32,000 nt of DNA from Methylorubrum extorquens (GCA_900234795.1 LT962688.1:3990001-4022000); one strand, 5' to 3'; positions 380 to 19,667 are shown, counted from the first letter of the stretch. Numbers and translations are program-made. Notes: generated by a model not told the origin, from the sequence alone.

Positions 380-418
380 GGCCAACGATCACCCGCATCC
401 CCTGACCGGAGTCCCGCC

Positions 419-1978: not shown

Positions 1979-2799
1979 TGCGCCCCGCCTCGCGCTGGTG
2001 GTGGGGATCTGACCACGGAGGACTTTTCGCGCCTCGACTGGGGGCCGCTCGTCGCGATCCTGCCCGTGGCGGCGGTCGAGCAGCACGGGCCGCACCTGCC
2101 GGTACGGGTCGATGCGGCGATCAATGCCGGTATCCTCGCCCGCGCCGTGGCTCTGATGCCCGACGACCTGCCGGCCCTGGTCCTGCCGATGCTGCCCATC
2201 GGCAAGTCGAACGAGCATCATGCCTTCCCCGGCACGCTCAGCCTCTCCCACGAGACCCTGGCGCGCCTGTGGATCGAGACCGCCGAGAGCGTGCACCGCG
2301 CCGGCTGCCGCCGCCTCCTCATCCTCAACAGCCATGGCGGGCAGCCGCAGGTGATGGAGATTGTCAGCCGCGAGTTGCGGGTGCGGCTCGGCATGCTCGC
2401 GGTCGGGTGTGGCTGGGGCGGGGTGACGCCGATGGACGACCTGTTCTCGCAGGCCGAGCGGCGCCACGGCATCCATGGCGGCGAGATCGAGACCAGCGCG
2501 ATGCTGGCGCTCCACCCCGACCTCGTGCGGATGGAGCGGGCGGACGACTTCGTGCCGCTCTCGGTCGAGATGGAACGGGCCGGCGGCCTGCTGACGCCGG
2601 AAGGCCGGGTCGGCTTCGGTTGGATGGCGCAGGATCTTCACCCGTCCGGCGTCAGCGGCAACGCGGCGGCGGCAGATGCCCGGCGCGGGGCCGAACTGGT
2701 GGAGCGCGCGCCGCCGCGGGCGTGGTGCGGCTGGTGCGCGAGATCGCGGATTTCCCGCTCGAGCGGCTGGGTTCCGGAACCGCCTTCGATGCCCGCTGA
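1978..2799 (+). pseudogene. Creatininase-family amidohydrolase with two apparent compensating frameshifts (or two sequencing indels)
   Basis: The core (about 2006-2710, frame of ORF 2066..4432) reads DLTTEDFSRLDWGPLVAILPVAAVEQHGPHLPV...LILNSHGGQ...HGGEIETS, which is typical of the creatininase fold. The only canonical start upstream of this conserved N-terminus is ATG 1978 (MRPASRWWW) in another frame, coupled to the upstream stop. The expected C-terminal helix AAAGVVRLVREIADFPLERLGSGTAFDAR* is again in that other frame and ends at TGA 2797-2799. Total length is 822 nt (273 aa), normal for the family. Confidence 0.6.
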
Positions 2800-4432
2800 C
2801 CCGCTCCTGCCGGTCGCCGAACCCGCCACGGCGACGCTGACCCTTCCCGACGGCGTCGTTCTCGCCGCCGATGTCTGGCGCCCGGCCGGGCCCGGCCGCC
2901 ATCCCGTCCTCCTCATGCGCCAGCCCTACGGCCGCGCCATCGCCTCGACGCTGACCCTGGCCCATCCCGCCTGGTACGCCGCCCGCGGCTACATCGTCGT
3001 GGTTCAGGACGTGCGCGGGCGCGGCGGCAGCGGCGGCGCCTTCCACCTGTTCGAGCACGAGGCCGAGGATGGCGCGGCGACCCTCGCCTGGGCGGCGGAT
3101 CTGCCCGGATCGGACGGCCGGGTCGCGACCTACGGCTTCAGCTATCAGGCGGTGACGCAGTTCCTTGCGCTGGCGGGCGCCCTGCGCGGGGGCACCAAGC
3201 GGCCCGACGCGATCGTGCCGGCGATGGGCGGCTGGAGCATCCGCGACGACTGGGCCTATACCGGCGGCGCCTTTGGCCTTGCCGGCAATATCGGCTGGGT
3301 CTGCCAGATGGGCGCCGAGGCCGCCCGGCTCCGGGGCGACGCCGCCGCCTTCGCGGCGCTCGGCGCGGCGGCGCGCGGCACGCCCTGGAGCGGACCCGTC
3401 GCGGCCCATCCCGAGGCGCTCGCGGCCCACGCCACCGACCACCACTATTTCGACTGGCTCGGCGACGATCCGGCCCTTTGGGACCGGATCGCCCCGGCCC
3501 GCCGCCTCGCGGGGCGCGACCTCGCCGTGCCCGGCCTGCATGTCGGCGGCTGGCAGGATTTCCTGCTCGACGGCACGCTCGGCGCCTACGACGCCTTCTG
3601 CACCGGGCCGGCGCCGCAGCGTCTGCTGATCGGGCCCTGGACGCATTCCCCCTGGGGCCGCCGGGTCGGCAGCCTGGATCTCGGGCCGGAGGCGGTCACG
3701 CCGGTCGATACCGCGACGGTCGCCTTCCTCGATCACGTGCTGCACGGGTGCGAGGATCCGGGTCCGCCGGTCCGGCTCTTCGACGTGGGGGCTCGCGATT
3801 GGGCCAGTTTTTCCGAATGGCCGAACCCCGAACCGACGGCGCTGTATCTCGCCTCGGACGGCCTCGCCGCGACCGCTGCGAGCGGCCGCCTCGTGGCGGC
3901 GCCGGGGGAGGCCGGCGAGGACCGCCTCGTGCACGATCCCTGGCGTCCTGCACCGGTCGCCGGCGGGCCCTGGGGGACGCCGCCGGGCTATCAGGACCGC
4001 GCCGCCCTCGACGACCGCAGCGACGTCGCGGTCTATGACGGCCCGGTGATCGCCGCGCCCCTGCAGCTCGCCGGCCGCGTCGCGGCGGAGGTGTTCGTAA
4101 AAACCGCGGCGGCGAGCCACGACCTGCACGCCACGCTCTCCCTCGTGGAGCCGGACGGACGCGCCGTCACCCTCACCGCCGGCCATCTGCGGGTGGTCGA
4201 GGCCGCCCCCGGCCCACGGCGCCTCGCCATGCGGGGCCTGTGCTGCACGCTGTACCCCGGACAGCGCCTGCGCCTGTCGCTCCAGGCCGCCGCCTGGCCA
4301 GCCTTCGCCGTCAATCCCGGAACCGGGAGCTGCCCGGAGGTGACCCCAGCGATGCAGGCGCAGGTGATCGTTCTCGCCCTGCGCCACGGTGCCGAGCGGC
4401 CGTCGCGGCTGCTGCTGCCGGTGCTCGGGTGA
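2789..4432 (+). CDS. CocE/NonD family hydrolase (peptidase S15 / X-Pro dipeptidyl-peptidase-like alpha/beta hydrolase)
   Basis: ATG 2789 gives MPADPLLPV..LTLPDGVVLAADVWRPAGPGRHPVLLMRQPYGR..YIVVVQDVRGRGGSGG..TYGFSYQAV (nucleophile elbow), followed by a long C-terminal beta-domain. This is the typical CocE/NonD layout. It overlaps the inferred creatininase stop by 11 nt. The ORF track fuses it to the upstream gene only because the upstream frame is shifted. Confidence 0.8.
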   Translation: MPADPLLPVAEPATATLTLPDGVVLAADVWRPAGPGRHPVLLMRQPYGRAIASTLTLAHPAWYAARGYIVVVQDVRGRGGSGGAFHLFEHEAEDGAATLAWAADLPGSDGRVATYGFSYQAVTQFLALAGALRGGTKRPDAIVPAMGGWSIRDDWAYTGGAFGLAGNIGWVCQMGAEAARLRGDAAAFAALGAAARGTPWSGPVAAHPEALAAHATDHHYFDWLGDDPALWDRIAPARRLAGRDLAVPGLHVGGWQDFLLDGTLGAYDAFCTGPAPQRLLIGPWTHSPWGRRVGSLDLGPEAVTPVDTATVAFLDHVLHGCEDPGPPVRLFDVGARDWASFSEWPNPEPTALYLASDGLAATAASGRLVAAPGEAGEDRLVHDPWRPAPVAGGPWGTPPGYQDRAALDDRSDVAVYDGPVIAAPLQLAGRVAAEVFVKTAAASHDLHATLSLVEPDGRAVTLTAGHLRVVEAAPGPRRLAMRGLCCTLYPGQRLRLSLQAAAWPAFAVNPGTGSCPEVTPAMQAQVIVLALRHGAERPSRLLLPVLG

Positions 4433-5156: not shown

Positions 5157-6230
5157 CTACTGCGTCAGCCGGTCGTCGATTCCCTTCACGTACCAGTTCA
5201 TGCCGAGGATCATCGGGTCGGGGGCTTGCTCGCCCTCCTTCACCGCGACCGAGCCGTCCTGCTTGAGCACCGGCCCCTGGAACGGGTGGATCTTGCCCTC
5301 GACGATCCCCTTCTTGGTCTCCTCGGCCAGCGCCTTCACGTCGTCGGGCATGTTGGTGAAGGGTGCCAGCACGACCATGCCGTCCTTGATGCCGGCCCAG
5401 GTGTCCCCGCTCTTCCACGTGCCGTCGAGAACGGCCTTGGTCTCGGCAATGACGTAGCCGTTCCAGTCGTCGACGATCGAGGTGAGCTGCGCCTTCGGGG
5501 CGAAGCGGTACTGGTCGGAGGACTGGCCGAAGGCGAGCTTTCCGGCCTTCTCTGCCTCCTGCAGCGGCGCGGCGGAATCGGTGTGCTGGGTCAGGATGTC
5601 GGCGCCCTGGGCCAGCAAGGCCTTGGCCGCCTCCGCCTCCTTGCCGGGATCGAACCACGTGTTCACCCAGACGATCTTGATCTTGATGTCCGGGTTGACC
5701 GACTGCGCGCCGAGCATGAAGGCGTTAATGCCGCTCACGACTTCGGGGATCGGGAAGGAGGCGATGTAGCCGACGGTGCCCGACTTCGACAGCTTGCCGG
5801 CGATCTTCCCGCAGATGTAGCGGCCCTCGTAGAAGCGGGCCGAGTAGGTGGAGACGTTGTCGGCCCGCTTGTAGCCGGTGGCGTGGGCGAACTTCACCTT
5901 GGGGAATTTCTTGGCGACCTTCAGGGTCGGCTCCATGAAGCCGAAGGAGGTCGTGAAGATCAGGCCGGCGCCCGAGCGGGCGAGCTTCTCGATCGAGCGC
6001 TCGCTGTCGGCCTCGGGCACGTTTTCGAGGAAGGTCGTCTCGACCTTGCCGGGCAGCGCCTCGGCCAGCGCCTTGCGGCTGAGGTCGTGCTGGTAGGAAT
6101 AGCCGTAATCGGCGACCGGGCCGACATAGACGAAGCCCACCTTGAGCTTGTCCGCCGCCCGCGCCGGAGCCGCCGCGATGGCCGCGCACAGGAGTGCCCC
6201 GGCCACGCGCGTGACGATGCTGCCCATCAT
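5157..6230 (-). CDS. BMP-family (Med/PnrA-like) ABC transporter substrate-binding protein, orphan copy
   Basis: Start ATG at 6230 gives MMGSIVTRVAGALLCAAIAAAPARA/ADKLKVGFVYVGPVADYGYSYQHD.., a signal peptide plus the conserved BMP N-terminal motif. AGGGG lies upstream. The 445-aa ORF in the track extends upstream as non-coding-looking sequence. Confidence 0.85.
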   Translation of the reverse strand: MMGSIVTRVAGALLCAAIAAAPARAADKLKVGFVYVGPVADYGYSYQHDLSRKALAEALPGKVETTFLENVPEADSERSIEKLARSGAGLIFTTSFGFMEPTLKVAKKFPKVKFAHATGYKRADNVSTYSARFYEGRYICGKIAGKLSKSGTVGYIASFPIPEVVSGINAFMLGAQSVNPDIKIKIVWVNTWFDPGKEAEAAKALLAQGADILTQHTDSAAPLQEAEKAGKLAFGQSSDQYRFAPKAQLTSIVDDWNGYVIAETKAVLDGTWKSGDTWAGIKDGMVVLAPFTNMPDDVKALAEETKKGIVEGKIHPFQGPVLKQDGSVAVKEGEQAPDPMILGMNWYVKGIDDRLTQ

Positions 6231-6566
6231 GAGTGTCTGCCCCTTTTCGACGGCGTTGTCCGCCGCGGCTTGCCGGCGCCGCGCATGGGCGCCCGGGGGA
6301 ATTTCAGAGCAAGACCAGGGCCAGGAGGGGGCGCGGGAGACGCTGAGCGGATGCTGACGCATCCCATCGATGACCATCAGCGGTTCGGCTGGTCTTTGAG
6401 CATGGAGATCAATGCGCCGGTCGGGCGTCAAAGCCATGCTGATCCCGCAATGCCGGGCAGCGGGCCCCTGTGGCGATCGCTGACGCGAGGGCACGCCCGC
6501 GCGCTTGGCAGGCCGTCATCGAGCGCGGCTCGATCCTACGGATCGGGTCGCACGGAGCATCGGACC

Positions 6567-7379
6567 ATGGATGACCTCGTCCTTCGCATCATCATCTTCG
6601 CGATCGTTGGCTTAGTCTCCGGTTTCATATCCGGATTGTTCGGCATCGGCGGCAGCACCGTGCGCCTGCCCATTTTCATTTATCTGCTTCCCTGGGTCGG
6701 TATCGGGCAATCGGTCCTGATGCACGTGGCATCGGCAACATCCATGGCGCTGGTCATACCCAGTGCGATCACCGCGACCCGCAAGCAATATGCCCTCGGG
6801 AACCTCGATGTCGGGTTTTACAAGACATGGGTGATCGGTCTCTTCATCGGCGTTGCCTTAGGGGCAATCTTGCTTCCGCATGGATCGACCGAAATCCTGC
6901 AGACCCTGTTTGCGGTCTATATCCTTCTGGTCGGCTTCTACATCGCTTTCGGCCGTGGACGCTTTTCGTCCAGAAGTGAGCCGCCGTCGGGCAGCAAGAG
7001 GATCGGCATCGCTTCGTTCGTCGGGCTCGTGGCGGCTTTGACTGGAACAAGTGGCGGTACACTGACGACACCGATCCTGAGCACCTGCGGGCTCGCTCTC
7101 GAAAAGGCGATCGCGATCGCCTCCGCCACCGGACTGGTAACCGGAAGCATCGCGACGATCGGAGGCATCCTTTCCGGATGGCATGCCCCGGATCGACCCT
7201 CCTATTCGCTCGGCTACGTGTACCTCGTCATCTTCGTCGTGATGATGCCGACGGTGATGATCAGCGCGCCCTGGGGCGTCTCCGTCGGCGAGAAGTTCAG
7301 CGAGACGACGCTGCAGCGGACCTATGCCGCGTTGCTGATCCTGGTCGGCTTGGATCTCCTGCGGCGGCTGGCGTTCTGA
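6567..7379 (+). CDS. TauE/SafE (DUF81) family anion/sulfite exporter membrane protein
   Basis: ATG 6567 gives MDDLVLRIIIFAIVGLVSGFISGLFGIGGSTVRLP.. and, in the second half, a repeated TGTSGGTLTTP motif. Multiple hydrophobic spans give the typical 2x4-TM DUF81 organisation. The gene is visibly lower in GC than its neighbours. Confidence 0.85.
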   Translation: MDDLVLRIIIFAIVGLVSGFISGLFGIGGSTVRLPIFIYLLPWVGIGQSVLMHVASATSMALVIPSAITATRKQYALGNLDVGFYKTWVIGLFIGVALGAILLPHGSTEILQTLFAVYILLVGFYIAFGRGRFSSRSEPPSGSKRIGIASFVGLVAALTGTSGGTLTTPILSTCGLALEKAIAIASATGLVTGSIATIGGILSGWHAPDRPSYSLGYVYLVIFVVMMPTVMISAPWGVSVGEKFSETTLQRTYAALLILVGLDLLRRLAF

Positions 7380-7715: not shown

Positions 7716-9278
7716 CTAATGATGCCCGGCCATGTGGCGGCCGATCACCCCGGCCTCCGCCGCGGCGGCCGGCGTTTCGTAGACGAGGCGTCCGTCCGAC
7801 ATCACGCAAATGCGGTCCGACAGTTCGAGAATCTCGTCGAGATCCTCGCTGATCAGCAGCACGGCGGCGCCGGCGTTCCGCGCCGCCACGATGCGGGAGC
7901 GGATCTCGGCGACCGCCGCGAAATCGAGGCCGAAGCAGGGATTGACGACGATCAGGAGATCGACCGGGTCGGTGAGTTCGCGCGCGAGCACGGCGCGCTG
8001 CACGTTGCCGCCCGAGAGCGTGGCGATCGGCGCCTCCGAGGAGGCGGTCTTGACCTTGAAGCGGGCGATCAAATCCTTCGCCCGCCGGCTCATGGCGCGC
8101 CGGTCGAGCCAGAGGGTCGGGGCACCGGCGGGATCGTCGCCGCGCCGGTCGAAGGCGCGGAAGGCGAGGTTTTCGGCCACCGACATCCGCGGCGCGCAGG
8201 CATTGCGCAGGGGCTCTTCGGGGATGAAACGCACCCGGTGCCGGCGGCTCTGCGCCCGCGTGCCGCGATAGGGCTCGCCCTGCACCACGACGCGCCCGCC
8301 CGTCGCGCGGATCTGGCCGCCGAGCACGTCAGCGAGTTCCTTCTGCCCGTTGCCGGAGACGCCGGCGATGCCGACGATCTCGTGGGCGCGCACGCGCAGA
8401 TCCGCGACATCGATCCGCCGCAGGCCGGAAGTGTCGGTGGCGGTCAGGCCGTCCACCCGCAGGATCTCGCGGGCCGGGTCGGGCTCGCCGACCCGCGCAG
8501 CGATCGTCCGCACGGCACGCTCGCCCACCATCATCGCAGCCATGTCGTCCCGCGATAGCGCGCCGACCGCGCCGCCGCCGACGAGCCGCCCACGCCGCAG
8601 GACGCTGAGGCTGCGGGCGAAGGCTTCGACCTCGCGGAACTTGTGGCTGATCATCAGCACCGTGAGCGCGCCCGCGTCCGCCATGCCGCGCAGCAGGCCC
8701 AGCACCTCCTCGGCCTCCGCCGGCGTCAGCACGGAAGTCGGCTCGTCGAGGATCAGGAACCGGGCCTTGAGGTAGAGCTGCTTGACGATCTCAAGCTTCT
8801 GCCGCTCGCCGGCCGCGAGTTCCGCCACCGGCCGGTCGAGGTTCAGCCGGAACGGCATCCGGGCCATGAAGCCGGCGAGCGCCGCGCGCTCGGCCTTCCA
8901 GTCGAGGATGGCGGGGGCGTCGGCCCGGCCGATGACCAGGTTCTCGGCACCGGTCAGCGACGGCACCAGGGTGAAGTGCTGGTAGACCATGCCGAGGCCG
9001 CGCCCCTGCGCGCCCTTCGGCCCGGTGATCTCGGCCTCGCGGCCATCGACGAGCACCGAGCCGGCGGTGGGCGCGTAGAAGCCCATCACGCATTTGACGA
9101 AGGTCGACTTGCCCGCGCCGTTCTCGCCGAGCAGGGCGTGGAAGCCGCCGGCCTCGATCTTCATCGAGACGTCGTCGAGGGCGGTGAAGCCGCCGAAGCG
9201 CTTCGTCATGCCGACGGTCTCGACCGCAAGGGCGCCGGAGTGGGCGCCGGATGGGACGGGGTGCGCGGAAGCCGCCAT
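7716..9278 (-). CDS. ABC transporter ATP-binding protein, tandem two-domain type (BMP/nucleoside-sugar class), system B
   Basis: 520 aa. First domain: Walker A GENGAGKST, LSAGERQKLEI, ILDEPTS. Second domain: GIAGVSGNGQ, LSGGNVQR. Start ATG 9278 lies 7 nt after the upstream stop. Confidence 0.9.
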   Translation of the reverse strand: MAASAHPVPSGAHSGALAVETVGMTKRFGGFTALDDVSMKIEAGGFHALLGENGAGKSTFVKCVMGFYAPTAGSVLVDGREAEITGPKGAQGRGLGMVYQHFTLVPSLTGAENLVIGRADAPAILDWKAERAALAGFMARMPFRLNLDRPVAELAAGERQKLEIVKQLYLKARFLILDEPTSVLTPAEAEEVLGLLRGMADAGALTVLMISHKFREVEAFARSLSVLRRGRLVGGGAVGALSRDDMAAMMVGERAVRTIAARVGEPDPAREILRVDGLTATDTSGLRRIDVADLRVRAHEIVGIAGVSGNGQKELADVLGGQIRATGGRVVVQGEPYRGTRAQSRRHRVRFIPEEPLRNACAPRMSVAENLAFRAFDRRGDDPAGAPTLWLDRRAMSRRAKDLIARFKVKTASSEAPIATLSGGNVQRAVLARELTDPVDLLIVVNPCFGLDFAAVAEIRSRIVAARNAGAAVLLISEDLDEILELSDRICVMSDGRLVYETPAAAAEAGVIGRHMAGHH

Positions 9279-9285
9279 GGTTGTC

Positions 9286-10005
9286 TCAGCCCATCGCTGC
9301 CAGGATCGCCTCGGACGAGGCCACCGCGCCGAACACGCCGCCCTGCATCGTCACCATCTTCAGCGCCGCCTCGTGGTTGCCCCGGTCGGTGGCGGCGGTG
9401 CCGTCGGAGACGATCACGCATTCGAAGCCGCGGTCGTTGGCCTCGCGCATCGTGGTGTGGACGCAGACATCCGTGGTGATGCCGGTCAGGATCAGGTTGC
9501 GGATGCCGCGCGTGGCCAGGATCAGTTCGAGATCGGTGGCGCAGAACGAGCCTTTGCCCGGCTTGTCGATCACCGGCTCGTCCGGCAGTGGCGCCAGCTC
9601 CGGGATGATCTCCCAGCCCGGCTCGCCGCGCACCAGCACCCGCCCGCAGGGACCGGGATCGCCGATCCCCGCTCCGATCCGGCGCGAGCGCCAGCGCTTG
9701 TTGTCGGGAAGATCCGCGAGATCCGGCCGATGGCCCTCGCGGGTATGGATTACGGGGTAGCCGCTCTTCCGCGCGGCGGCGAGAAGCCGTGCGATCGGCT
9801 CGATCGGCGCGCGGGTCAGGGCGAGGTCGTAGCCCATGGCATCGACGTAGCCGCCCTTGCCGCAGAAATCGGTCTGCATGTCGATGATGACGAGGGCCGT
9901 GGTCTTCGGATTGAGCGAACCGTCATAGGGCCAAGGATAGGGCTCAGCAGCGACGAAGCGGCCGCTTTCGGCGGCAGCGGCGGAGGGGAACGGGATGACG
10001 CTCAT
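9286..10005 (-). CDS. Isochorismatase-like cysteine hydrolase, BiuH/TrtA-like (copy A)
   Basis: 239 aa. Asp-Lys-Cys triad contexts are [18 protein letters not shown] and [12 protein letters not shown]-terminal PYPWPYDG motif. ATGA start/stop overlap with the formamidase gene (10002-10005). Confidence 0.85.
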
Positions 10006-11030
10006 TCCGCCGCCTCCCGCGCGGCCGTCGTCTGGCCCTCACCGTAGGCGCGGGTCGGCTCTGGGAAGCCGCACGAGGTGCCATCGGTCACCTTCACCGT
10101 CTCCTCCCACGGCACGCGGTAACGGCCGGCGGCGAGGTCGTGCATGTAGGTGTAGGGGCAGTCGTTCGCGCCGCCCTTCACCGCCGTGTAGCCGCGGTGA
10201 CCGAGCTGGTAGATGTTGTTCTCGACGCCCCAATGCGCCCGCGCCTCGCGGACCAGATCCGGCCGCACCTCGGCGGTGATGATCTCGTCGACGCGACCCG
10301 TGGTGCTGTGGGCGATGACGGTGCCGTCGAAGTTGACGATCATGCCTTCGCCCATGGAGTCGAAGGTGCCGTCCGAGCCGCACATGCAGACATTGGCGGT
10401 CACCATCAGGTTGCAGAAGGCGTTCGACTGGTTGGTGAAGCGCCAGGATTCGCGGATCGGGGCGGTGTAGCCGGCCGTGCGGATCATGATCTCGGCGCCC
10501 TTGTAGGCGCATTCGCGCGCCATCTCGGGGAACATGCCGTCGTGGCAGATGATGAGGCCGATCTTGGCGCCCTTCGGGCCCTCGATCACCGGGATGCCGA
10601 GATCGCCGGGCTCCCAGGGCTCGACCGGCACCCAGGGATGCATCTTACGATAGTAGAGCTTCAACGCGCCGGTGTCGTCGATGATGAGGCCGGAATTGAA
10701 CGGATTGCCGTTCGGGTTGGCCTCCATGATCGAGAAGCAGCCCCAGATCCGGCTGTCGCGGCAGGCCTGTTTGAAGGCCGCGACCTCGGGGCCGTCGAGC
10801 GTGCACAGGATCTGAGGGTTGGTGTCCATCGACAGGCCGTGCAGGGCGTATTCGGGGAAGACGACGAGATCCATCGTCGCGAGGTTGGCGCGCGCCTTGG
10901 CGACCATCGCGACGATGCGGTCGGTCTGTGCCTTGAGGTCAGCCCTGGTGGCCACGTTCGGAAGCTGGAGCTGCACGAGGCCGAGCACGACGCCGTTCGG
11001 GGATTTGTTCAGTCCGCCGAGACCGTTCAT
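10002..11030 (-). CDS. amiF: Formamidase (AmiF-type aliphatic amidase, nitrilase superfamily)
   Basis: 342 aa. Glu-Lys-Cys triad contexts are [18 protein letters not shown] and [21 protein letters not shown]. The C-terminal [36 protein letters not shown] closely follows my recollection of Helicobacter AmiF, and fits it better than AmiE. AAGGAA Shine-Dalgarno (SD) sequence upstream of ATG 11030. Confidence 0.85.
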
Positions 11031-11039
11031 GGGGATTCC

Positions 11040-11960
11040 TTACTTCAGGGACAGCTCGCCCGGCGCGCCGGCCAGCGCCCGGTCGGGCGAGGAGGTGGCG
11101 ATCAGGAGCGCCAGGGTGAGGATGTAGGGAGCGGCGTAGAACAGGTAGTAGCCCTGCGAGATGCCGACCGATTGCAGGGCGGGCCCGAGTGCGCCGGCCC
11201 CCCCGAACATCAGGGCGGCGCCGAAGCAGGCGAGCGGGTTCCAGCGGGCGAAGATCACCAGCGCCACCGCCATCAGACCCTGCCCGGACGAGATGCCCTC
11301 GTTCCAGGAGCCGGGATAGTAGAGCGAGAGATAGGCGCCACCGATCCCGGCGAGCACGCCGCCCGCGGCGGTCGCCAGGAGCCGCACGCGGTCGACGTCG
11401 TATCCCATGGCCCGTGCCGCATCCGCGCTGTCGCCGACCACGCGCAGGATCAGGCCGGCCTTGGTGTTGCGGAACGCCCACCACAGCAACACCGCCAGCG
11501 CCGCGCCGGCCAGGAACAGCACGTTGACCCGCAACGCCGCCTGCACCTGCGGCAGGTCGGACCAGAAGCCGAAGGGAATCGCCGGCAGCGGCGGGGCCGA
11601 GGGCTGGATGAAGGGCTTTCCGAGGAAGAAGGCGAGGCCTGAGCCGAACAGCATCAGCGCGATGCCGATCGCCACGTCGTTGACGCGGGGGAAGCGGCAG
11701 ATGAAGCCGTGCAGCAGGCCGAAGGCGCCGCCCGCGAGCCCCGCGACCGCGACGCCCGCCCACGCGCTCCCGCTCAGCACGGCGGTGGCGTAGGCCGACA
11801 TCGCCCCGAAGACGAGGATGCCCTCCAGCCCGAGATTGATGCGTCCCGAGCGCTCGGTGATGGTCTCGCCGAGGCTCACGAACAGGAACGGCGTCGAGAC
11901 GCGGATCGCGCCGCCGACCACGGCGAGCAACACGGTCCCCAGGCCGAGATCGTCGCTCAT
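11040..11960 (-). CDS. ABC transporter permease (BMP/nucleoside-type, NupQ/YufQ-like), system B
   Basis: 306 aa, polytopic and hydrophobic. N-terminal VSTPFLFVSLGETITERSGRINLGLEG motif, typical of this permease family. Confidence 0.85.
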   Translation of the reverse strand: MSDDLGLGTVLLAVVGGAIRVSTPFLFVSLGETITERSGRINLGLEGILVFGAMSAYATAVLSGSAWAGVAVAGLAGGAFGLLHGFICRFPRVNDVAIGIALMLFGSGLAFFLGKPFIQPSAPPLPAIPFGFWSDLPQVQAALRVNVLFLAGAALAVLLWWAFRNTKAGLILRVVGDSADAARAMGYDVDRVRLLATAAGGVLAGIGGAYLSLYYPGSWNEGISSGQGLMAVALVIFARWNPLACFGAALMFGGAGALGPALQSVGISQGYYLFYAAPYILTLALLIATSSPDRALAGAPGELSLK

Positions 11961-11982
11961 TCCGTCGGCCCCCTACCGGCTC

Positions 11983-13140
11983 TCACGACACCGCTCCGCG
12001 CTTCTCGGCCCAGAGATGCGGGCTGAACAGCTTGAAGCGCCCGTAGAGCGTCTCGCTGACGAGCACGACGAGGAAGAGCAGCCCTTCGAGCACGAGCACC
12101 GTGGCGTCGGGCAGCTGCATCCGGCGCTGGATCAGGCCGTTCGAGGCCTCGATGCCGCCGAGCAGGAAGGCCACGGGCAGGATCGCGAGGGGATTGTGGC
12201 GGGCGAGGAAGGCGACGAGGATGCCGGTATAGCCGAAGCCCGCATTGAGCGAGGCGTTGGCGTTGCCGTGCACCGCCGCGACCTCGAAGAAGCCGGCCAG
12301 CGCCGCGCAGGCGCCGCCGAGCGCGGTGAAGCCGACGACGAGCCGCCCGACCGGCAAGCCCTGGATCTGTGCGGCCCGCACGTTGCCGCCCGCGATGCGC
12401 GCAGCAAAGCCGATCGTGGTGCGCTCGGTGAGCCCGTAAGCGGCCAGGCAGGCGAGAATGCCGATGCCGAGGCCCCAGTGAACCTCGAGGCCCGGCATGG
12501 GGCCGACCGCGAACGCCTCGCCGATCGGCCAGGTGGAGGGCTTGTTGAGGCTGCCCGCGTCGCGCAGCAGGCCCTCGATCAGATGGTTCGAGAGCGCGAT
12601 CGCGATGTAGGACATCAGCAGGCTGGCGATGGTCTCGTTGACGCCGCGATAGGCGCGCAGCGCGCCGACGGCGCCGATCCAGGCTGCCCCGGCCGCTGCC
12701 GCGGCGAGCGCCATCAGCGGCACCGCGAGCATCGGGGGAGAACCCTGAAGCGGCTGTGCCGCGGCCGCCGCGGCCACGCCTCCGAGCACGATCGCGCCCT
12801 CGCCGCCGATCACCACGAGTCCGAGCCGGGCGGGCAGCGCGACGCAGAGCGCGGCGAGGAGCAGGGGCGCGGCGCGCTGCAGGCTGTTCTGGAGGGCGAA
12901 GGGCGAGCCGAAGCCGCCGCGCCAGACGAGGTCGAGGAAGGCGAGCGGGCTCTTTCCGAGGGCGAGCAGGAAGAGGGAGAACAGCAGGAAGCCGGCGATG
13001 ACCGCTCCGACCGGGATCGCCAGGGCCTCGGCCCGGCGCGCGAGCCATGCCCGAGCCTGGAGCGAGGCCGGCGGATGGTCCGGGCCGCTCACGGCGCTCT
13101 CGACGAGCGGCAGCGCGGGGGCGGTGGTGTCAGCGGCCAT
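11983..13140 (-). CDS. ABC transporter permease (BMP/nucleoside-type, NupP/YufP-like), system B
   Basis: 385 aa, polytopic. Conserved ...LGLVVIGGEGAIVLGG... and ...TGILVAFLARHNPL... segments. It lies 22 nt upstream of the next permease gene. Confidence 0.85.
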   Translation of the reverse strand: MAADTTAPALPLVESAVSGPDHPPASLQARAWLARRAEALAIPVGAVIAGFLLFSLFLLALGKSPLAFLDLVWRGGFGSPFALQNSLQRAAPLLLAALCVALPARLGLVVIGGEGAIVLGGVAAAAAAQPLQGSPPMLAVPLMALAAAAAGAAWIGAVGALRAYRGVNETIASLLMSYIAIALSNHLIEGLLRDAGSLNKPSTWPIGEAFAVGPMPGLEVHWGLGIGILACLAAYGLTERTTIGFAARIAGGNVRAAQIQGLPVGRLVVGFTALGGACAALAGFFEVAAVHGNANASLNAGFGYTGILVAFLARHNPLAILPVAFLLGGIEASNGLIQRRMQLPDATVLVLEGLLFLVVLVSETLYGRFKLFSPHLWAEKRGAVS

Positions 13141-13313
13141 CGCTCAGTCCTCGCCCGCGGAGCGGCAGAAACCGTGCCAGGTCGACGCTCACCACCCCGC
13201 CCCGAAGCGCAGGCCCGTCCGCGCCGCGCGACGGCAGGACGGATGGTGCGCGGGAGCCGTTCTCGGGGGGAGCCCGGGATCCGCTTGCATCCGGCGGGAT
13301 GGCGGGAGCCGCA

Positions 13314-14453
13314 TCAGGCCGAGCCCTTCACGCCCTCGACGAGGTAGTTGGTCTTCTCCAGCTCGATCGCGTTCTCGGCGAACGCCTTGCCGGGGCCGGC
13401 GATCTCGTTGCCCTTGTTGTCCTTGAGCGGGCCCTTGATGATGGCGAAGCCGCCCTTCATCATCTCGGCCTTGACCGCGTCGGCGTTGCGGCGTGCTTCC
13501 TCGGACACCGCGGGCCCGTAGGGGCTCATCTTCACGAAGCCGTCCGGCAGGCCGCCGCGCACGAAGTTCGGGGGCGCCTTGCCCGCCTGCATGTCGGCGA
13601 CGAAGCCCTTGTAGATCGAGGCCCAGTTCCACTCGGCGCCGGTCAGGTACTTGTCCTTGGCGAGTGCCGATTGGTCGGCGTGGTAGCCGCAGACGAAGGC
13701 CCCGCGCCGCGCCGCGGTCTCGACCACGACCTTGGGACCGTCGACGTGGCAGGTGATCACGTCGGCGCCGCCGTCGATGAGCGCGTTGGTCGCCTCCGCC
13801 TCCTTGACCGCGAGCGACCACTCGCCGGTGAAGATCACCTGCAGGGTGATGGACGGATCGACGCTGCGCGCGCCGAGCAGGAAGCCGTTGACGTTGTTGA
13901 GCACCTGGGGGACCGGCTTGGCGGCGACGAAGCCGAGCCGCTTCGACTTCGAGGCGTGGGCGGCAACGATGCCGTTCAGGTACTGGCCTTGGGCGATGTA
14001 GCCGAAATACGAGCCGGCGTTCTTCGGGTTCGCCTCGGTCCAGAGGCCGCCGCAATGGCGGAACTGCACCTTCGGGTTCTTCTTGGCCTCGATCAGCACG
14101 TGCGGATCGAAGTAGCCAAAGGACGTCGGGAAGACGAGGCTCGCGCCGTCCAGGTTGATCATGCTCTCCATGGTCTTCTGGACGTCGGTGGTCTCGCGGA
14201 CGTTCTCCTCCTCGACGACTTGAAGGCCGGGGATCGCCTTAAGGGCGGCCGCACCTTGGGCGTGGGCTTGGTTGTAGCCGTAATCGTCCTTCGGCCCGAC
14301 ATAAATGAACCCGACGGTGAGCGGGCCGGCGGCCCGGGCGCGGCCGAAGGGCAGCGCGCCGAGCGAGAGGGCGGCCGCACCGCCGAGAAGATGTCTGCGG
14401 GAGAAAGGATGGGCTGACACGAGGCGTGATCCGTCTTTCCGGGCCGGCGGCAC
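13314..14453 (-). CDS. BMP-family ABC transporter substrate-binding protein with a twin-arginine-like signal
   Basis: ..HPFSRRHLLGGAAALSLGALPFGRARA/AGPLTVGFIYVGPKDDYGYNQAH... contains an SRRxLL Tat-type motif followed by the BMP N-terminal motif. The start is GTG 14453 or an internal GTG at 14420 (VSAHPFSRR). Confidence 0.85.
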   Translation of the reverse strand: MPPARKDGSRLVSAHPFSRRHLLGGAAALSLGALPFGRARAAGPLTVGFIYVGPKDDYGYNQAHAQGAAALKAIPGLQVVEEENVRETTDVQKTMESMINLDGASLVFPTSFGYFDPHVLIEAKKNPKVQFRHCGGLWTEANPKNAGSYFGYIAQGQYLNGIVAAHASKSKRLGFVAAKPVPQVLNNVNGFLLGARSVDPSITLQVIFTGEWSLAVKEAEATNALIDGGADVITCHVDGPKVVVETAARRGAFVCGYHADQSALAKDKYLTGAEWNWASIYKGFVADMQAGKAPPNFVRGGLPDGFVKMSPYGPAVSEEARRNADAVKAEMMKGGFAIIKGPLKDNKGNEIAGPGKAFAENAIELEKTNYLVEGVKGSA

Positions 14454-14618
14454 AGGCTTGGCAGAATTGATCCTGTTCCGTGCAGAGAAAAGATCAAAGT
14501 TTCGGCATCAGAATGCGGATCAACCGCCAGGGAAAACCCTGTCGAATCGGATGATGCGCCCAAAAAGACGTCCGCATATGCATGCTTTCGCGCCATCGAT
14601 CCCGCGTCGCTACGGTCC

Positions 14619-15545
14619 TCAACGGCTCGGAGCGAAGACGCGGCCGAGCGCTGCCGGTGCCAGCGAGCCGCCCCGACGCCGGCCGAGCGACAGCAGGACG
14701 AGGGCTAGGATGGTGGCGAGGTAGGGGACCGCCGAGAGCAACTGGCCGGGCAGGCCGAGACCCGCAGCCTGGGCGTGGAGCTGCAGCACGGTCGCCCCGC
14801 CGAAGAGCAGCGCGCCCGCGGCCACCCGCAGCGGCTGCCAGGAGGCGAAGACCACGAGCGCGAGCGCAATCCAGCCCCGCCCGGCCGTCATCGCCGGCGC
14901 CCAGAACGGCGTGTAGGCCAGCGACAGGTAAGCGCCCGCCAGCCCCGCGCAGGCGCCGCCGAACAGCACGGCGAGGAAGCGGACCTTGCGCACCTTGAGC
15001 CCGAGGGCGTGGGTCGCGGTGTGATCGTCGCCGATGGCGCGCAGGGTCAACCCGGCGCGGGTGCGCCAGAGGAACCACCACACCCCCGCGACGAGGAGGA
15101 GGGCCGCGTAGACGAAGGCGTCGTGTCCGAACAGCAGCCGCCCGATCCCGGGGAGGTCGGTGAGGCCGGGCAGGTGGAGATGAGGCGCCGGATCGCGCTT
15201 CATCCCGACATAGCCGGCGCCGACGAGGCCGGAGAGCCCCAGTCCGAGGATGGTCAGCGCCAGTCCCGAGGCGACTTGATTGGCCGCCAGCCCCACGGTG
15301 AGAATGCCGAAGAGCGCGGCGAGCAGCAGGCCCGCCCCAGCCCCGCCGAGGGCGCCGAGGGCGGTCGATCCAGTCTCGGTGGCGACGGCGAAGCCGGCGG
15401 CCGCGCCGAACACCATCATGCCCTCGACGCCGAGATTGAGCACGCCGGCGCGCTCCACGACGAGCTCGCCGACAGCGGCCAGGATCAACGGGGTGGCCGC
15501 CGCCAGCACCGTGACGAGCACCATTTGGACGATGTCGAGGCTCAT
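14619..15545 (-). CDS. ABC transporter permease (BMP/nucleoside-type), system A
   Basis: ATG at 15545 gives MSLDIVQMVLVTVLAAATPLILAAVGELVVERAGVLNLGVEG.. There is an ATGA overlap with the stop of the upstream permease (15542-15545). The 586-aa ORF in the track is a spurious upstream extension. Confidence 0.85.
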   Translation of the reverse strand: MSLDIVQMVLVTVLAAATPLILAAVGELVVERAGVLNLGVEGMMVFGAAAGFAVATETGSTALGALGGAGAGLLLAALFGILTVGLAANQVASGLALTILGLGLSGLVGAGYVGMKRDPAPHLHLPGLTDLPGIGRLLFGHDAFVYAALLLVAGVWWFLWRTRAGLTLRAIGDDHTATHALGLKVRKVRFLAVLFGGACAGLAGAYLSLAYTPFWAPAMTAGRGWIALALVVFASWQPLRVAAGALLFGGATVLQLHAQAAGLGLPGQLLSAVPYLATILALVLLSLGRRRGGSLAPAALGRVFAPSR

Positions 15546-16633
15546 GGTGTCACCCGTGTGCTCGCGCCGCCCGGCACGATCCGAACGTGGTAGCGCGTGA
15601 GCACGTCGGCCCCGAGCACGAGGCCGAGCAGCAGCCCTTGGAAGGCGCGGGTCAGATCGAGCGGCAGCTTCAGGTCGATCTGCGCCCCCTCCCCGCCGAT
15701 CGTCGTGAGCGCGATGACGAGCGCCGCAAGCAGGATGCCGGGCGGGCTGAGGCGCCCGAGAAATGCGACGATGATCGCGGTGAAACCGTAACCGGGAGAG
15801 ATCTCCGGCTGGAGCTGGCCAATCCGCCCGGCCACCTCGCAGATGCCGGCAAGACCCGCCGCACCGCCAGAGATCGCGAAGACCGAGAGCGTCAGCCGCG
15901 CGTCCGAGAAGCCGGCAAAGCGGGCTGCCCGCGGGCTCGCCCCGACGGCGCGCACCTCGAAGCCGAACAGGGTGCGCGCCAGGACGAGGGCCGCGAGCAC
16001 GATTGCCAGAAGGCTGATGAGCACGCCCGCATGGAGCGACTCGCCGTCCATCAGCAGCGGCAGCCGGGCGGCATCCTCGAAGCCGACGCTCTGCGGGAAG
16101 TTGTAGCCCTGCGGATCGCGCAAGGGGCCACGCACCATGTAGTCGAGCAGCAGCTGCGCGACGTAGACGAGCATCAGGCTGGTCAAGATTTCCGAGACGC
16201 CGAGCCTGACCCGCAGCAGCGCCGGGATCATCGCGTAGGCGATCCCGGCACAGGTGCCGGCGAGCAGCATCGCGGGTAGGATCCAGAAGGTGGGCCCCTG
16301 GAAACCGTGCGCGGCGACAGCGACCCAGCCGCCCGCGAGGCCGCCGGCCACGTACTGACCCTCCGCCCCGATGTTCCACAGGTTGGCGCGGTAGCAGAAG
16401 GCGAGACCGGTCGCGATCAGGGCCAGCGGCGCGGCCTTCAGCGCGACCTCCTGCAGCGACCAGACCTCGCTCAAGGGCGCGACGAAATAGGTGAGGAAGG
16501 CCTGTTCCGGCGCGACGCCGAGGGCCGCCACCGCAATCCCGCCGATCAGAACCGCGGCGAGGAAGGCGAGCGCGGGCGCGAGCAGGTCGAGCCAGGGTGA
16601 CCGGCGCGCGCGGGGGAGGAGATCAAGGCGCAT
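15542..16633 (-). CDS. ABC transporter permease (BMP/nucleoside-type), system A
   Basis: 363 aa, polytopic. Paralogous to 11983-13140 (..NIGAEGQYVAGG.., ..TAIIVAFLGRLSP..). Confidence 0.85.
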   Translation of the reverse strand: MRLDLLPRARRSPWLDLLAPALAFLAAVLIGGIAVAALGVAPEQAFLTYFVAPLSEVWSLQEVALKAAPLALIATGLAFCYRANLWNIGAEGQYVAGGLAGGWVAVAAHGFQGPTFWILPAMLLAGTCAGIAYAMIPALLRVRLGVSEILTSLMLVYVAQLLLDYMVRGPLRDPQGYNFPQSVGFEDAARLPLLMDGESLHAGVLISLLAIVLAALVLARTLFGFEVRAVGASPRAARFAGFSDARLTLSVFAISGGAAGLAGICEVAGRIGQLQPEISPGYGFTAIIVAFLGRLSPPGILLAALVIALTTIGGEGAQIDLKLPLDLTRAFQGLLLGLVLGADVLTRYHVRIVPGGASTRVTP

Positions 16634-16695: not shown

Positions 16696-18303
16696 TCAAT
16701 GGACCGGCGCGGCGGTTCGGATCGCAGGCGCCGCCGGAGGCTCGCCCGTCTGCTGCTCCGGCTCGCCGGCCCCGCCCATCAGCAGCCCCAAAGCCGCGCG
16801 GCTGGTCGCAGCGGTCGGGACGGGCGGCGAGAGAGCGCGCCGGCATGCAGGACGGCGATAGAATCGGCGATCTCGAACAGCTCGTCGAGATCCTGGCTGA
16901 TCACGACCACCGCGGCACCGCGGCCGGCGAGATCGAGCACCGCCTGCCGGATATGGGCGGCGGCGGCGGCATCGACGCCCCAGGTCGGCTGGTTGATGAC
17001 GAGGATGCCCGGCTCGGCCAGGATCTCGCGCCCGACCACGAATTTCTGCAGGTTGCCGCCCGAGAGCGTGCCGGCCGCCGGGTCTGGGCCGGCGCCGCGC
17101 ACGTCGAAGGCGTCGATCACCCGACGGGCGAGCGCCCGCGCCGCGCCGAGCCGCAGCAGGCCCAGCCAAGTGAGCGGCGCCGTGGCGTGGCGGGAGAGCA
17201 GCGCGTTCTCCGACAGGGTCATGGACGGGACGGCGGCGTGGCCGTTGCGCTCCTCGGGCACGAAGGCGGCCCCGAGCCGGCGCCGGGCATTGATGCCGAG
17301 CTGGCCCACCGCCCGGCCGTCGAGGCGCACCGCCGCGGCCGCCGGGGCCCGGCTCTCGCCGGAGAGGACGTCGAACAGCTCTGCCTGCCCGTTGCCGGCG
17401 ATGCCGGCGATGCCGAGGATCTCCCCGCCCGCAACGGAGAGCGCGATGTCCCGCAGCGGCGTCCCGTGCAGGCCGGGCGCGGGCCGCGACAGGCGGTCGA
17501 GCACGAGGCGCTCGGCGCGGCCCGCGCGGGCCGCCTTCGGCCGCACCTCGCTCACCCCCCGTGCCGACCATCATCGCCGCGAGCGAGCGGGCGGTCTCCG
17601 CCTGCGGATTGCAGCTGCCGACGACCCGGCCGCCCCGCAGGATCGTGGCCCGGGTGCAGAGGCGGCGCACCTCGTCGAGCCGGTGGGAGATGTAGAGCAC
17701 GGCGCGGCCCTCATCGCGCAGGCGTTCCAGCACCGAGAACAGCACCTCCGCCTCGCCCGGCGTCAGCACCGAGGTCGGCTCGTCGAGGATCACGAGCTTC
17801 GGGTTCTGAAGCAGGCAGCGCACGATCTCGATGCGCTGGCGCTCGCCCGCCGAGAGCGACCAGACCGGCCGCGCGGGATCGAGATGCAGGCCGTAATCCG
17901 CTCCGAGCCGGGCGATCCGCTCCGCCAGCGCCCGGCCCGTCAGCCCGGCGGGCATGACGAGGGCGATGTTCTCGGCGACCGTCAGATTCTCGCACAGCGA
18001 GAAGTGCTGGAACACCATGCCGATGCCGAGCGCCCGCGCGGCCTCGGGGTTGGCCAGCCGCACGATGTCGCCCTGATGCGTGACGACGCCCTCCGTCGGC
18101 TCCAGGAGGCCGTAGAGGATCTTCATCAGGGTGGATTTGCCGGCGCCGTTCTCGCCGAGCAGGGCGTGGATCTCGCCGGCGCGGATCTCCAGATCGACCT
18201 GATCGTTGGCGGTGAAGGCGCCGAAGCGCTTGACGATGCCGTAGGCCCCGAAGAGCGGGGTCGGGCCTTCCCGCGAGGCCGGCGCAGCGGATGCGGCCGC
18301 CAT
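16696..18303 (-). pseudogene. ABC transporter ATP-binding protein (two-domain), system A, with two apparent compensating frameshifts
   Basis: Domain 1 (GENGAGKST, LSAGERQRIEI, ILDEPTS) is in the frame of ORF 16696..19044 and starts at ATG 18303 (TGATG overlap with the deaminase stop). After ..AAMMVGT the sequence continues sensibly only in the frame of ORF 16779..17555 (VSEVRPK..GIAGIAGNGQ..LSGGNLQK..). The C-terminus LSPPVPTAATSRAALGLLMGGAG..* returns to the first frame. The shift sites are the C6 run at 17545-17550 and about 16836-16848. Total length is 1608 nt, divisible by 3. Confidence 0.7.
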
Positions 18304-19667
18304 CACGCCGTTCCGAACAGGGTGCGTGCCAGCCGGCCGTGCTCCTCGCGCAGGCGTCCCGTTTCGATGCCGACGGGCTCCCCGTCGATAACTCGCCAGT
18401 TCCCGGCCACCATCACCCGGTCCGCCCGGTGAGCGCCGCACAGGACCAAAGCCGCGAGCGGGTCGTGGGCGCCGGAGAAGCGGAGTTCGTCGAGGGTGAA
18501 CAAGGCCAGATCCGCCTCGCGGCCGGGTTCGATCCGTCCGATATCGCTGCGCCCGAGGCAGGCGGCGGAGCCCTCCGTCGCCCAGCGCAGGGCATCGAGA
18601 TGGGTCACGGCTTCCGCACCGTAGGTCAGGCGGTTGATCATCAGGGCGTGGCGCACGCCCTCCGTCAGATTCGAGCTGTCGCTCGAGGCCGAGCCGTCGA
18701 CGCCGAGGCCGACGGGGGAGCCCGCGGCCTCCAGCTCGCAGGTGCGGCACTGGCCCGAAGCCAGCACCATGTTCGAGGCCGGGCAATGGCACACCCCGAC
18801 GCCGGCGCCGCCGAGGCGCTTCACCTCGTCGTCGTTGAAGTGGATGCCGTGGGCGAGCCAAGCCCGCCGCGTCATCCAGCCAACCTCTTCGAGATAGTCC
18901 ACCGGACGCTGCCCGAACGCCTCCAGGCAGAAGGCGTTCTCGTCGAGCGTCTCGCCGAGATGGGTGTGCAGGCGGCAATCGTGGCGCTCGGCGAGCGCGG
19001 CGCTCTCGCGCATCAGCCGCTTGGTAACGTTGAACGGCGAGCACGGAGCCAGCCCGATCTGCACCATCGCGCCGGGTTCGGGATCGTGGAACAGGCCGAG
19101 CACCCGCTCGCTGTCGGCCAGGATGGTGTCGTCGTCCTGCACCAGCGTCTCGGGCGGCAGGCCGCCGTCCTTCTCCGACAGGCTCATCGAGCCGCGGGTG
19201 ACGAAGGCGCGGATACCGAGGGAGCGCGCCTCCTCGAACTGGATGTCGACGGCCGCCTCAAGCCCTCTCGGGAACAGGTAATGGTGGTCGCCCGCCGTGG
19301 TGCAGCCCGACAGCAGCAGCTCCGTATAGGCGAGCCGCGTCGCCAGCCGGAAGGCGTCCGGCGTCAGCCGCGGCCAGATGGTCGAGAGCGCCTTCAGCCA
19401 GGGAAAGAGCGGCTTGTTGATCGCGATCGGGTGCGCGCGGGTGAGCGTCTGGAAGAAGTGGTGATGCGTGTTGACGAGGCCGGGGATGACGACGTGGCGC
19501 GAGGCGTCGAACGTCTCGTCGACCGGGCTCGCGGGCAGGGCGCCCGCGTCCACCACTTCGGCGATGCGGGTGCCCTCCACCACGAGCCCGCCGCCGGCCC
19601 CGTCGGCGAGGATCGCCAACGGATCGCGGAGCCAGAGACGGCGGGGGCGGGTGCTCGATTCCATCAT
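18303..19667 (-). CDS. Amidohydrolase-superfamily deaminase, 8-oxoguanine deaminase-like
   Basis: 454 aa. LWLRDPLAIL.., metal-binding GLVNTHHHFFQTLTR, HTHLGE, WLAHGIH, GLGVDGSASSD. From memory it is collinear along its whole length with Pseudomonas PA0142-type 8-oxoguanine deaminase. Confidence 0.8.
   Translation of the reverse strand: MMESSTRPRRLWLRDPLAILADGAGGGLVVEGTRIAEVVDAGALPASPVDETFDASRHVVIPGLVNTHHHFFQTLTRAHPIAINKPLFPWLKALSTIWPRLTPDAFRLATRLAYTELLLSGCTTAGDHHYLFPRGLEAAVDIQFEEARSLGIRAFVTRGSMSLSEKDGGLPPETLVQDDDTILADSERVLGLFHDPEPGAMVQIGLAPCSPFNVTKRLMRESAALAERHDCRLHTHLGETLDENAFCLEAFGQRPVDYLEEVGWMTRRAWLAHGIHFNDDEVKRLGGAGVGVCHCPASNMVLASGQCRTCELEAAGSPVGLGVDGSASSDSSNLTEGVRHALMINRLTYGAEAVTHLDALRWATEGSAACLGRSDIGRIEPGREADLALFTLDELRFSGAHDPLAALVLCGAHRADRVMVAGNWRVIDGEPVGIETGRLREEHGRLARTLFGTA

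Follow-up and report, generated by a model that had tools for sequence, protein, structure and literature searches.

Within a 32,000-nucleotide window of Methylorubrum extorquens DNA (∼70% G+C), positions 7716–13140 carry two hydrolase genes lodged between the permease and ATPase genes of an ATP-binding cassette (ABC) importer of the BMP family. We consider it likely that this stretch is the M. extorquens version of a known operon for scavenging nitrogen from biuret and triuret, and the layout itself is the standard, very widespread form of that operon. A sequence-only reading of the window knew of no described pathway with this arrangement, which invites a tempting ‘new pathway’ interpretation that has to be corrected: the same layout is found on pRL10 of Rhizobium 3841, a cassette of this kind was drawn by Tassoulas et al. 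in 2021, a link with bmpA-nupABC was described in 2025, and the layout occurs even on plasmids of Enterobacteriaceae. In the scheme that we favour, the importer would take up a planar, open-chain ureide, for which biuret is the most likely candidate and triuret or cyanuric acid a further possibility, by means of a substrate-binding protein (SBP) that would have descended from purine binders, retaining their aromatic sandwich and losing the purine-contacting glutamate. BiuH would hydrolyse the cytoplasmic biuret to allophanate and ammonia, a divergent trtA-atzG-atzE-atzH operon would feed triuret into the same pool by way of 1-carboxybiuret, and AmiF, an optional but long-standing module of the operon, would convert formamide to formate and ammonia; expression would probably depend on sigma-54 and hence be nitrogen-controlled. 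Biuret and triuret occur as impurities in fertilisers and are candidates for a slow-release nitrogen supply, which lends some applied value to knowing how their uptake works and how nitrogen controls it.

Organization of the importer operon

Genes on the minus strand of the window run unbroken from ∼20.7 kb down to 7.7 kb, as judged by open reading frame (ORF) analysis and third-position G+C. Six of them make up the biuret-type BMP importer operon, which we call System B, as distinct from a purine-type BMP importer, System A, in the same window. In order along the minus strand, these are the genes for a BMP-family SBP (13314–14420; PF02608, 122 bits) with a signal of the twin-arginine translocation (Tat) type, SRRHLL; permease 1 (11983–13140; PF02653); permease 2 (11040–11960; PF02653); an AmiF-type formamidase of the nitrilase superfamily (10002–11030; NF009803, 586 bits against a cut-off of 406); BiuH, a biuret amidohydrolase of the isochorismatase-like cysteine hydrolase (IHL) type (9286–10005; NF050097, 423.6 bits against a cut-off of 370); and a fused double ABC ATPase of 520 residues with two PF00005 domains (7716–9278). 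The ORF of the SBP spans 13314–14453; the gene callers used on sister assemblies place its start at 14420, the more likely position, which gives a protein of 368 residues. All the System B genes are intact in the window, and every part of a BMP/PnrA-type importer is present, namely a Bmp SBP that carries an export signal, a pair of BPD_transp_2 permeases and the two-domain ATPase. The order permease–permease–formamidase–cysteine hydrolase–ATPase, the three tight junctions within it and the two hydrolase family assignments, both of which exceed their equivalog cut-offs, are all as the sequence-only reading had given them.

The junction between permease 2 and amiF measures 9 nucleotides (TAAggaatccccATG), with an AAGGA overlapping the stop codon; amiF and biuH share an ATGA overlap; and 7 nucleotides (TGAgacaaccATG) part biuH from the ATPase gene. 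Between the embedded genes we found no sigma-70 match, and terminator-like sites are rarer there than in shuffled sequences. Because of the junctions and the lack of a terminator-like or sigma-70-like site between the genes, co-transcription of the permease 2, amiF, biuH and ATPase genes is, as far as sequence can decide it, essentially forced, in agreement with the earlier view that the two hydrolases belong to the importer operon and are transcribed with it. That view had gone on to claim that they are co-translated stoichiometrically with the transporter, which short junctions cannot show. In some Methylorubrum and Methylobacterium loci of the survey described below (L003, at 9436–9990, and also L004 and L010), amiF and biuH are separated by an insert of ∼600 nucleotides that carries, on the opposite strand, a BrnT/BrnA toxin–antitoxin pair (BrnA, 54 bits; the BrnT fragment, at 26.4 bits, falls under its cut-off of 34.5). 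Since this insert splits the two genes in other species, their ATGA coupling is not universal.

The two embedded hydrolases and the TrtA paralog

Aligned with the crystallised BiuH from Rhizobium 3841 (PDB code 6AZO), the embedded IHL scores 391 bits, keeps the motifs IIDMQ, IDKPGKG and TDVCVHTT and has an intact Asp-Lys-Cys triad; in the Rhizobium enzyme, the catalytic residues are Asp36, Lys142 and Cys175 (PMC5806882). Tassoulas et al. describe four second-shell positions that separate BiuH (Tyr, Tyr, Asp, Val) from the triuret hydrolase TrtA (Phe35, Asn41, Glu160, Ile205), and the embedded protein has the BiuH-type residue at all four (GGY, MGY, TTDVC, QGGV). By these features it is a BiuH ortholog of the Rhizobium 3841 enzyme, with a predicted activity on biuret.

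A paralog of this protein is encoded at 21197–21877 on the plus strand, as the first gene of the divergent operon. It reaches 283 bits with the BiuH equivalog model, under the cut-off of 370, its best PDB match is the Herbaspirillum TrtA (6XIX/6XJE, 297 bits) and it bears the TrtA-type residues Phe, Asn, Glu and Ile (GGF, LGN, TTEVC, QGGI), which points to a triuret hydrolase. The same strand continues with an atzG-like gene (21975–22178; PF13318, 57 bits), a gene for an atzE-family amidase (∼22175–23590; NF006631, 741 bits) and an atzH-like gene (23587–23994; PF11533, 200 bits), followed by a gene for a xanthine permease.

Against the 586 bits obtained with the formamidase model NF009803, AmiF scores 228 bits with the model for the aliphatic amidase AmiE (NF009802, cut-off 427), and its PDB matches include the enzymes of Bacillus cereus (5G3O, 366 bits) and Helicobacter pylori (2DYU, 330 bits). 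The catalytic tetrad E60, K133, E141 and C166, together with D168, is kept in the window AmiF and in all the operon AmiFs that could be aligned at these positions, and so is the pocket wall formed by W137 and Y192. In the H. pylori enzyme, the wall of Trp137 and Tyr192 limits the pocket to formamide (PMC10781810), and the window AmiF appears to be a true formamidase with a predicted formamide-only pocket. The sequence-only reading had the imported compound deamidated by the two enzymes in two successive steps. As stated, this does not stand, because allophanate, the product of BiuH, goes to AtzF-type enzymes, and because of the predicted restriction of AmiF to formamide; two steps are conceivable only for a formyl-ureide, for example formylurea.

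The binding protein and its likely ligand

The closest solved relatives of the System B SBP are AtzT of Pseudomonas sp. ADP (6PI5, 192 bits) and, after it, the adenine-bound Brucella protein 3S99; the Pfam Bmp and NCBIfam B6-type matches of the protein are weak. AtzT contacts guanine through Tyr45, Ser97, Phe98, Glu165, Trp194, Asn218 and Asn220. The 65 orthologs of the System B SBP that we compared keep Tyr/Trp45, Ser97, Phe98, Trp194, His218 and Asp220, with the aromatic sandwich retained, but none of them keeps the purine-contacting Glu165, which is Gln in 57. Position 139 has changed to Gln and position 217 to Cys or Met, the System B protein itself having Gln165, Gln139 and Cys217. In contrast, the SBP of System A (5157–6230, minus strand; 499 bits to 3S99) keeps Glu165 and equals 3S99 at 10 of the 11 ligand sites, with Tyr in place of Trp at position 45.

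As judged from these residues, the System B SBPs are a distinct BMP subfamily with an altered ligand site, and the locus would hold one purine-type importer and a second one retuned for a planar, non-purine ligand. We infer that the cargo of System B is most likely biuret or triuret, perhaps cyanuric acid. The sequence-only reading had suggested a small amide, formyl or ureido molecule as cargo, and a small ureido amide, rather than a nucleoside, is indeed the most likely one. The altered site makes the transported compound directly testable.

Distribution of the layout

The conservation of the gene neighbourhood, which had been put forward as a check within the Rhizobiales, was followed in 83 loci, comprising 80 species-representative loci with close BiuH relatives, two plasmid loci and the window, each scored in tblastn searches with a set of 16 reference proteins. 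In 68 of the 83, which extend well past the Rhizobiales, permease 2 is accompanied by both BiuH and the ATPase, and in almost all of these 68 BiuH comes after permease 2 and before the ATPase, whether or not AmiF precedes it and AtzD follows it. The layout of BiuH within an importer is far beyond chance. It was found in Alpha-, Beta- and Gammaproteobacteria, Cyanobacteria, Verrucomicrobia, Planctomycetota, Rokubacteria and Actinobacteria (Solirubrobacteraceae). Accessory genes vary across the 83 loci, TrtA being present in 52, AtzF in 28, AtzE in 18, TrtB in 10, GntR in eight and AtzD in five. One of the plasmid loci (L083), on pENT-784 of Enterobacter cloacae, reads transposase, atzF, SBP, permease, permease, amiF, biuH, ATPase, trtA, GntR, transposase, and the transposase-flanked cassette is also present on many Klebsiella, Citrobacter and Enterobacter plasmids from clinical and wastewater Enterobacteriaceae.

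Regulation

A sigma-54-like motif with one mismatch (TGGCACGGTTTCTGC, 13165–13179, minus strand) lies between the SBP and permease 1 genes and is conserved in place in the Methylobacterium/Methylorubrum loci L003, L004, L006 and L007. The only match to TGGCAC-N5-TTGC in the window with no mismatch, the −24/−12 motif TGGCACCCCCGTTGC (20728–20742, minus strand), is found ∼35–50 nucleotides 5′ of the start codon of the Tsx-like channel gene described below. Across the survey, 39 of 69 loci have a motif with at most one mismatch (perfect in 21) 5′ of the SBP gene, at a distance of 4–106 nucleotides, mostly 30–85; the corresponding counts are none of 30 for AmiF and five of 76 for permease 1, these five being the window and four Methylobacterium/Methylorubrum loci. 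The operon is probably under sigma-54 control and hence, we infer, under nitrogen control, as for the atz operons of Pseudomonas ADP. A search of Rfam at gathering thresholds gave no riboswitch or other RNA-element match in the locus.

Two further stretches of noncoding sequence may be mentioned here. The purine-type SBP gene has a one-mismatch sigma-54 motif (TGGCCCTGGTCTTGC, 6309–6323) ∼90 nucleotides 5′ of it, which is conserved in L003, and 5′ of the System B SBP gene lies a relatively A+T-rich intergenic stretch of 200 nucleotides (14421–14618), within which a short inverted repeat, TTGATC-N18-GATCAA, is a possible operator.

Role of the formamidase

AmiF was found in 30 of the 83 loci, immediately 5′ of BiuH in 25 of the 30 and immediately 5′ of the SBP gene in four Bradyrhizobium-type loci. 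The operon AmiFs are 72–92% identical to that of the window across phyla; their pairwise identities correlate with those of the permease and the ATPase (r = 0.75–0.76), and in a Mantel test of AmiF against BiuH none of 2000 permutations reached the observed value. Because its divergence tracks that of the transporter genes, AmiF is an old resident of the operon and not a recent insertion. The window AmiF is 100% identical to an entry from M. extorquens, a member of the Rhizobiales/Hyphomicrobiales, the group to which the sequence-only reading had also pointed. The matches listed in the protein search with AmiF are taken up by relatives at least 82% identical to it, and more distant contexts were taken from plasmid records; on Klebsiella plasmids, a 47%-identical AmiF clade directly follows urtABCDE. 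About one-third of these operons, then, include a conserved formamidase that has evolved along with them, and the searchable literature, as far as it was open to us, gave no link of a formamidase to biuret, biuret hydrolase or cyanuric acid. As the source of the formamide, we would tentatively place a parallel or side substrate first, ahead of formylurea acted on by BiuH, or something else again.

The account that fares best, tentative as it is, takes AmiF to be a nitrogen-scavenging passenger with no chemical connection to BiuH, co-regulated under nitrogen limitation, with formamide entering by diffusion or through the same channel and importer. Formamidases have repeatedly become joined to importers of small amides or urea, as in the Klebsiella clade after urtABCDE and in Methylophilus fmdCABDEF, which encodes a formamidase alongside a porin and an ABC-type uptake system; the window enzyme has retained its formamide-only pocket, and most of these operons do without AmiF. 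However, the very stable position in the operon and the high identity across phyla suggest more than casual hitch-hiking, and a chemical link is hinted at by the presence of AmiF in all five AtzD-containing loci, a small set that takes no account of phylogeny and is phylogenetically non-independent.

Somewhat less probable, and in our view doubtful, is a sequential route, a specific form of the two-step idea of the sequence-only reading, in which formylurea or another N-formyl ureide would be imported, BiuH would convert it to N-formylcarbamate, spontaneous loss of CO2 would yield formamide, and AmiF would release formate and ammonia. The placement of AmiF directly 5′ of BiuH in most loci and of the SBP gene in four others amounts to two independent placements in one operon, AmiF has co-diverged with that operon, and the proposed chemistry would parallel the conversion of biuret to allophanate; formate, moreover, is a central metabolite in a methylotroph. 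Formylurea is also the second-best substrate of the paralog TrtA, yet it is turned over at 0.3% of the triuret activity (PMC7948467), and its acceptance by BiuH is a supposition. The BiuH active-site positions are the same in AmiF-containing and AmiF-lacking operons (96 invariant positions), and the sole enriched residue is the lid-adjacent K50, in 15 of 28 AmiF-containing and three of 40 AmiF-lacking loci (raw counts that ignore phylogeny); a specialised BiuH in the AmiF-containing operons was rejected for want of an active-site difference. Further points against the route are that two-thirds of the operons lack AmiF and that formylurea has no established natural source in these habitats.

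Much less likely than either is a shift in the specificity of AmiF, which would make it a substitute for allophanate hydrolase or a deformylase acting on N-formylbiuret from s-triazine rings of the 5-azauracil type. Rhizobium 3841 has no atzF near biuH, the fate of allophanate there is called unresolved in the literature, and AmiF stands beside AtzD in every AtzD-containing locus; against this, the W137/Y192 pocket wall is invariant and AmiF lies 180 bits over the formamidase equivalog cut-off. Nor is AtzF anticorrelated with AmiF, since it occurs in eight of 28 AmiF-containing and 15 of 40 AmiF-lacking loci and the Enterobacter cassette carries both, on which grounds a replacement of allophanate hydrolase by AmiF was rejected.

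A reading of System B as a normal importer of nucleosides or purines, with two unrelated hydrolase insertions, is very improbable, for although the closest solved SBP relatives bind guanine or adenine and there are weak Bmp and B6-type matches, Glu165 is lost from all 65 orthologs and kept in the adjacent System A SBP, many phyla have BiuH embedded in this transporter, and the locus already has a separate purine-type importer.

The biuret/triuret interpretation has several observations of its own to contend with. We know of no place for formamide in the chemistry of biuret, triuret or cyanuric acid, and one conserved gene of the operon, amiF, is therefore unaccounted for. The genes atzD, atzF, trtB and GntR, which accompany the operon elsewhere, were not found in the 32-kb window by tblastn with Rhizobium and Mesorhizobium proteins, so that the fate of the allophanate is not visible there. 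In the window there is no sigma-54 motif immediately 5′ of the SBP gene itself, and the sigma-54 motifs are consensus matches only, their overall number in the window at up to two mismatches being that expected by chance. The atzE- and atzH-like genes could, instead of or besides acting on 1-carboxybiuret, serve oxalurate metabolism as HpxY/HpxZ, given that the score of the AtzH-like protein with the HpxZ equivalog model (200 bits) exceeds the cut-off of 135. Finally, the searchable literature yielded no ligand-binding, transport, expression or enzyme data for the operon from any organism.

Neighbouring genes

On the minus strand 5′ of System B lie the other genes of System A, comprising two permease genes (15542–16633 and 14619–15545; PF02653) and an ABC ATPase gene (16696–18303), with two half-length ABC matches. 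The ATPase gene is broken by two indels, an additional G at 17560 in a run of G and an additional CT at 16834–16835 in a CT repeat. In the sister assembly L085 the gene is intact (534 residues), the two indels being the only differences over 14 kb; the locus is present in several read-archive assemblies, the frameshifted fragment is not on record in other assemblies and the sister assemblies have the intact gene. The indels are either assembly errors or slippage mutations. The SBP gene of System A is parted from the rest of that system by the nested System B and by a TauE gene (6567–7379, plus strand), the gene order being shown by the related loci L003, L030 and L050; in L003, from Methylorubrum, System B is likewise nested between the System A permeases and the System A SBP.

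Next to the System A ATPase gene is a gene for an 8-oxoguanine deaminase of the amidohydrolase superfamily (18303–19667, minus strand; NF006055, 667.7 bits against a cut-off of 532), and beyond it the channel gene (19693–20691, minus strand). The 363-codon ORF of the latter has no sequence match in Pfam, NCBIfam or the PDB. Its AlphaFold2 model, an all-beta barrel built on a 40-sequence alignment, has a predicted local-distance difference test score of 91.6 and finds Escherichia coli Tsx (1TLW) as its best fold match (E-value 5.6e-8, template-modelling scores 0.61/0.73), from which we predict a Tsx-like outer-membrane beta-barrel. The protein ends in ...AGVAFHIF, and its signal peptide, MSVRGLAAVALSLFTVGTAVAADL, is encoded in a frame other than that of the ORF, which indicates an apparent frameshift near 20600. 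Homologs of the channel adjoin BMP importers in Methylobacterium and Bradyrhizobium.

The biuret importer and the purine-type importer form a conserved supra-operonic association; in Bradyrhizobium both importers, the Tsx-like channel and the 8-oxoguanine deaminase are adjacent. Loci in which System A and System B were seen together are L003, L030, L050, L061, L074, L075, L077 and L082. With the Tsx-like channel, the 8-oxoguanine deaminase and the purine-type importer as its neighbours, the operon would fit a wider and rather speculative picture, in our estimate an unlikely one, in which it salvages ureide fragments left by oxidised nucleobases (biuret, triuret, formylurea and formamide, plus cyanuric acid in operons with atzD) with an undescribed BiuH–AmiF branch for formylurea and an SBP retuned to open-chain, planar ureides by the change of Glu165 to Gln.

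Two other regions of the window lie outside both importers. At 26094–30992, an ORF of 1632 codons begins with an amidase-signature domain (residues ∼91–362) and continues in beta-strand repeats of the autotransporter type, and has the appearance of a large amidase, secreted or on the cell surface, adjoining the nitrogen-scavenging locus. An acyl-CoA ligase, a creatininase-family protein and a hydrolase of the CocE/NonD family are encoded at 380–4432; in the sister assemblies these are three separate genes.

Comparison with known systems

The closest counterpart of System B is on pRL10 of Rhizobium johnstonii 3841 (previously R. leguminosarum bv. viciae), from which the characterised BiuH and AtzD, as well as a TrtA, come and where the order is likewise SBP, permease, permease, formamidase, BiuH and then the ATPase. 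The window AmiF is 80% and BiuH ∼73% identical to the pRL10 proteins, and there is a sigma-54 motif in the promoter region of both operons. On pRL10 alone, atzD separates BiuH from the ATPase, whose gene is directly followed by trtA and the cupin gene trtB, and GntR is divergent; in the window, on the other hand, trtA lies ∼11 kb off in the divergent operon with atzG-E-H, and System B is nested in the purine-type importer. The pRL10035x locus tags have no mention that we could find in the searchable literature. In R. leguminosarum bv. viciae 248, GntR is followed by BMP SBP, permease, permease, formamidase, BiuH, atzD, ATPase, TrtA and cupin; this 8.6-kb operon aligns along its entire length (100%) with pRL10 of strain 3841, is 96.8% identical to it and has the same genes annotated there.

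Transporter genes near biuH have been noted before. Supplementary Fig. 1 of Tassoulas et al. (2021) shows an ‘ABC transporter cassette’ beside biuH/trtA, along with grey genes of unknown function (PMC7948467), and a 2025 study of nitrifiers describes biuH, trtA and atzF as co-located with bmpA-nupABC (PMC12625717). System B resembles these clusters of Herbaspirillum sp. BH-1 and the nitrifiers in setting biuH and trtA in the neighbourhood of a BMP-type ABC cassette, which suggests a shared logic of uptake plus hydrolysis (PMC7948467, PMC12625717). Their descriptions include atzF and mention no formamidase, unlike the window, which has amiF and no atzF (PMC7948467, PMC12625717).

Two other groups of systems share part of the design. 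AtzT, encoded in the atzRSTUVW operon of Pseudomonas sp. ADP, is a Tat-exported BMP SBP like that of System B, there beside s-triazine catabolic genes and under sigma-54/nitrogen control; it is a guanine binder (dissociation constant 0.11 μM) that keeps Glu165, and its operon is without embedded enzymes, unlike System B. Methylophilus fmdCABDEF and Klebsiella urtABCDE-amiF, both ammonia-repressed, resemble System B in uniting a formamidase in one unit with a small-amide importer, a porin or both. They differ from it in having a transporter of the Urt/HAAT type, rather than the BMP/CUT2 type, and no BiuH, and FmdA is a non-homologous formamidase.

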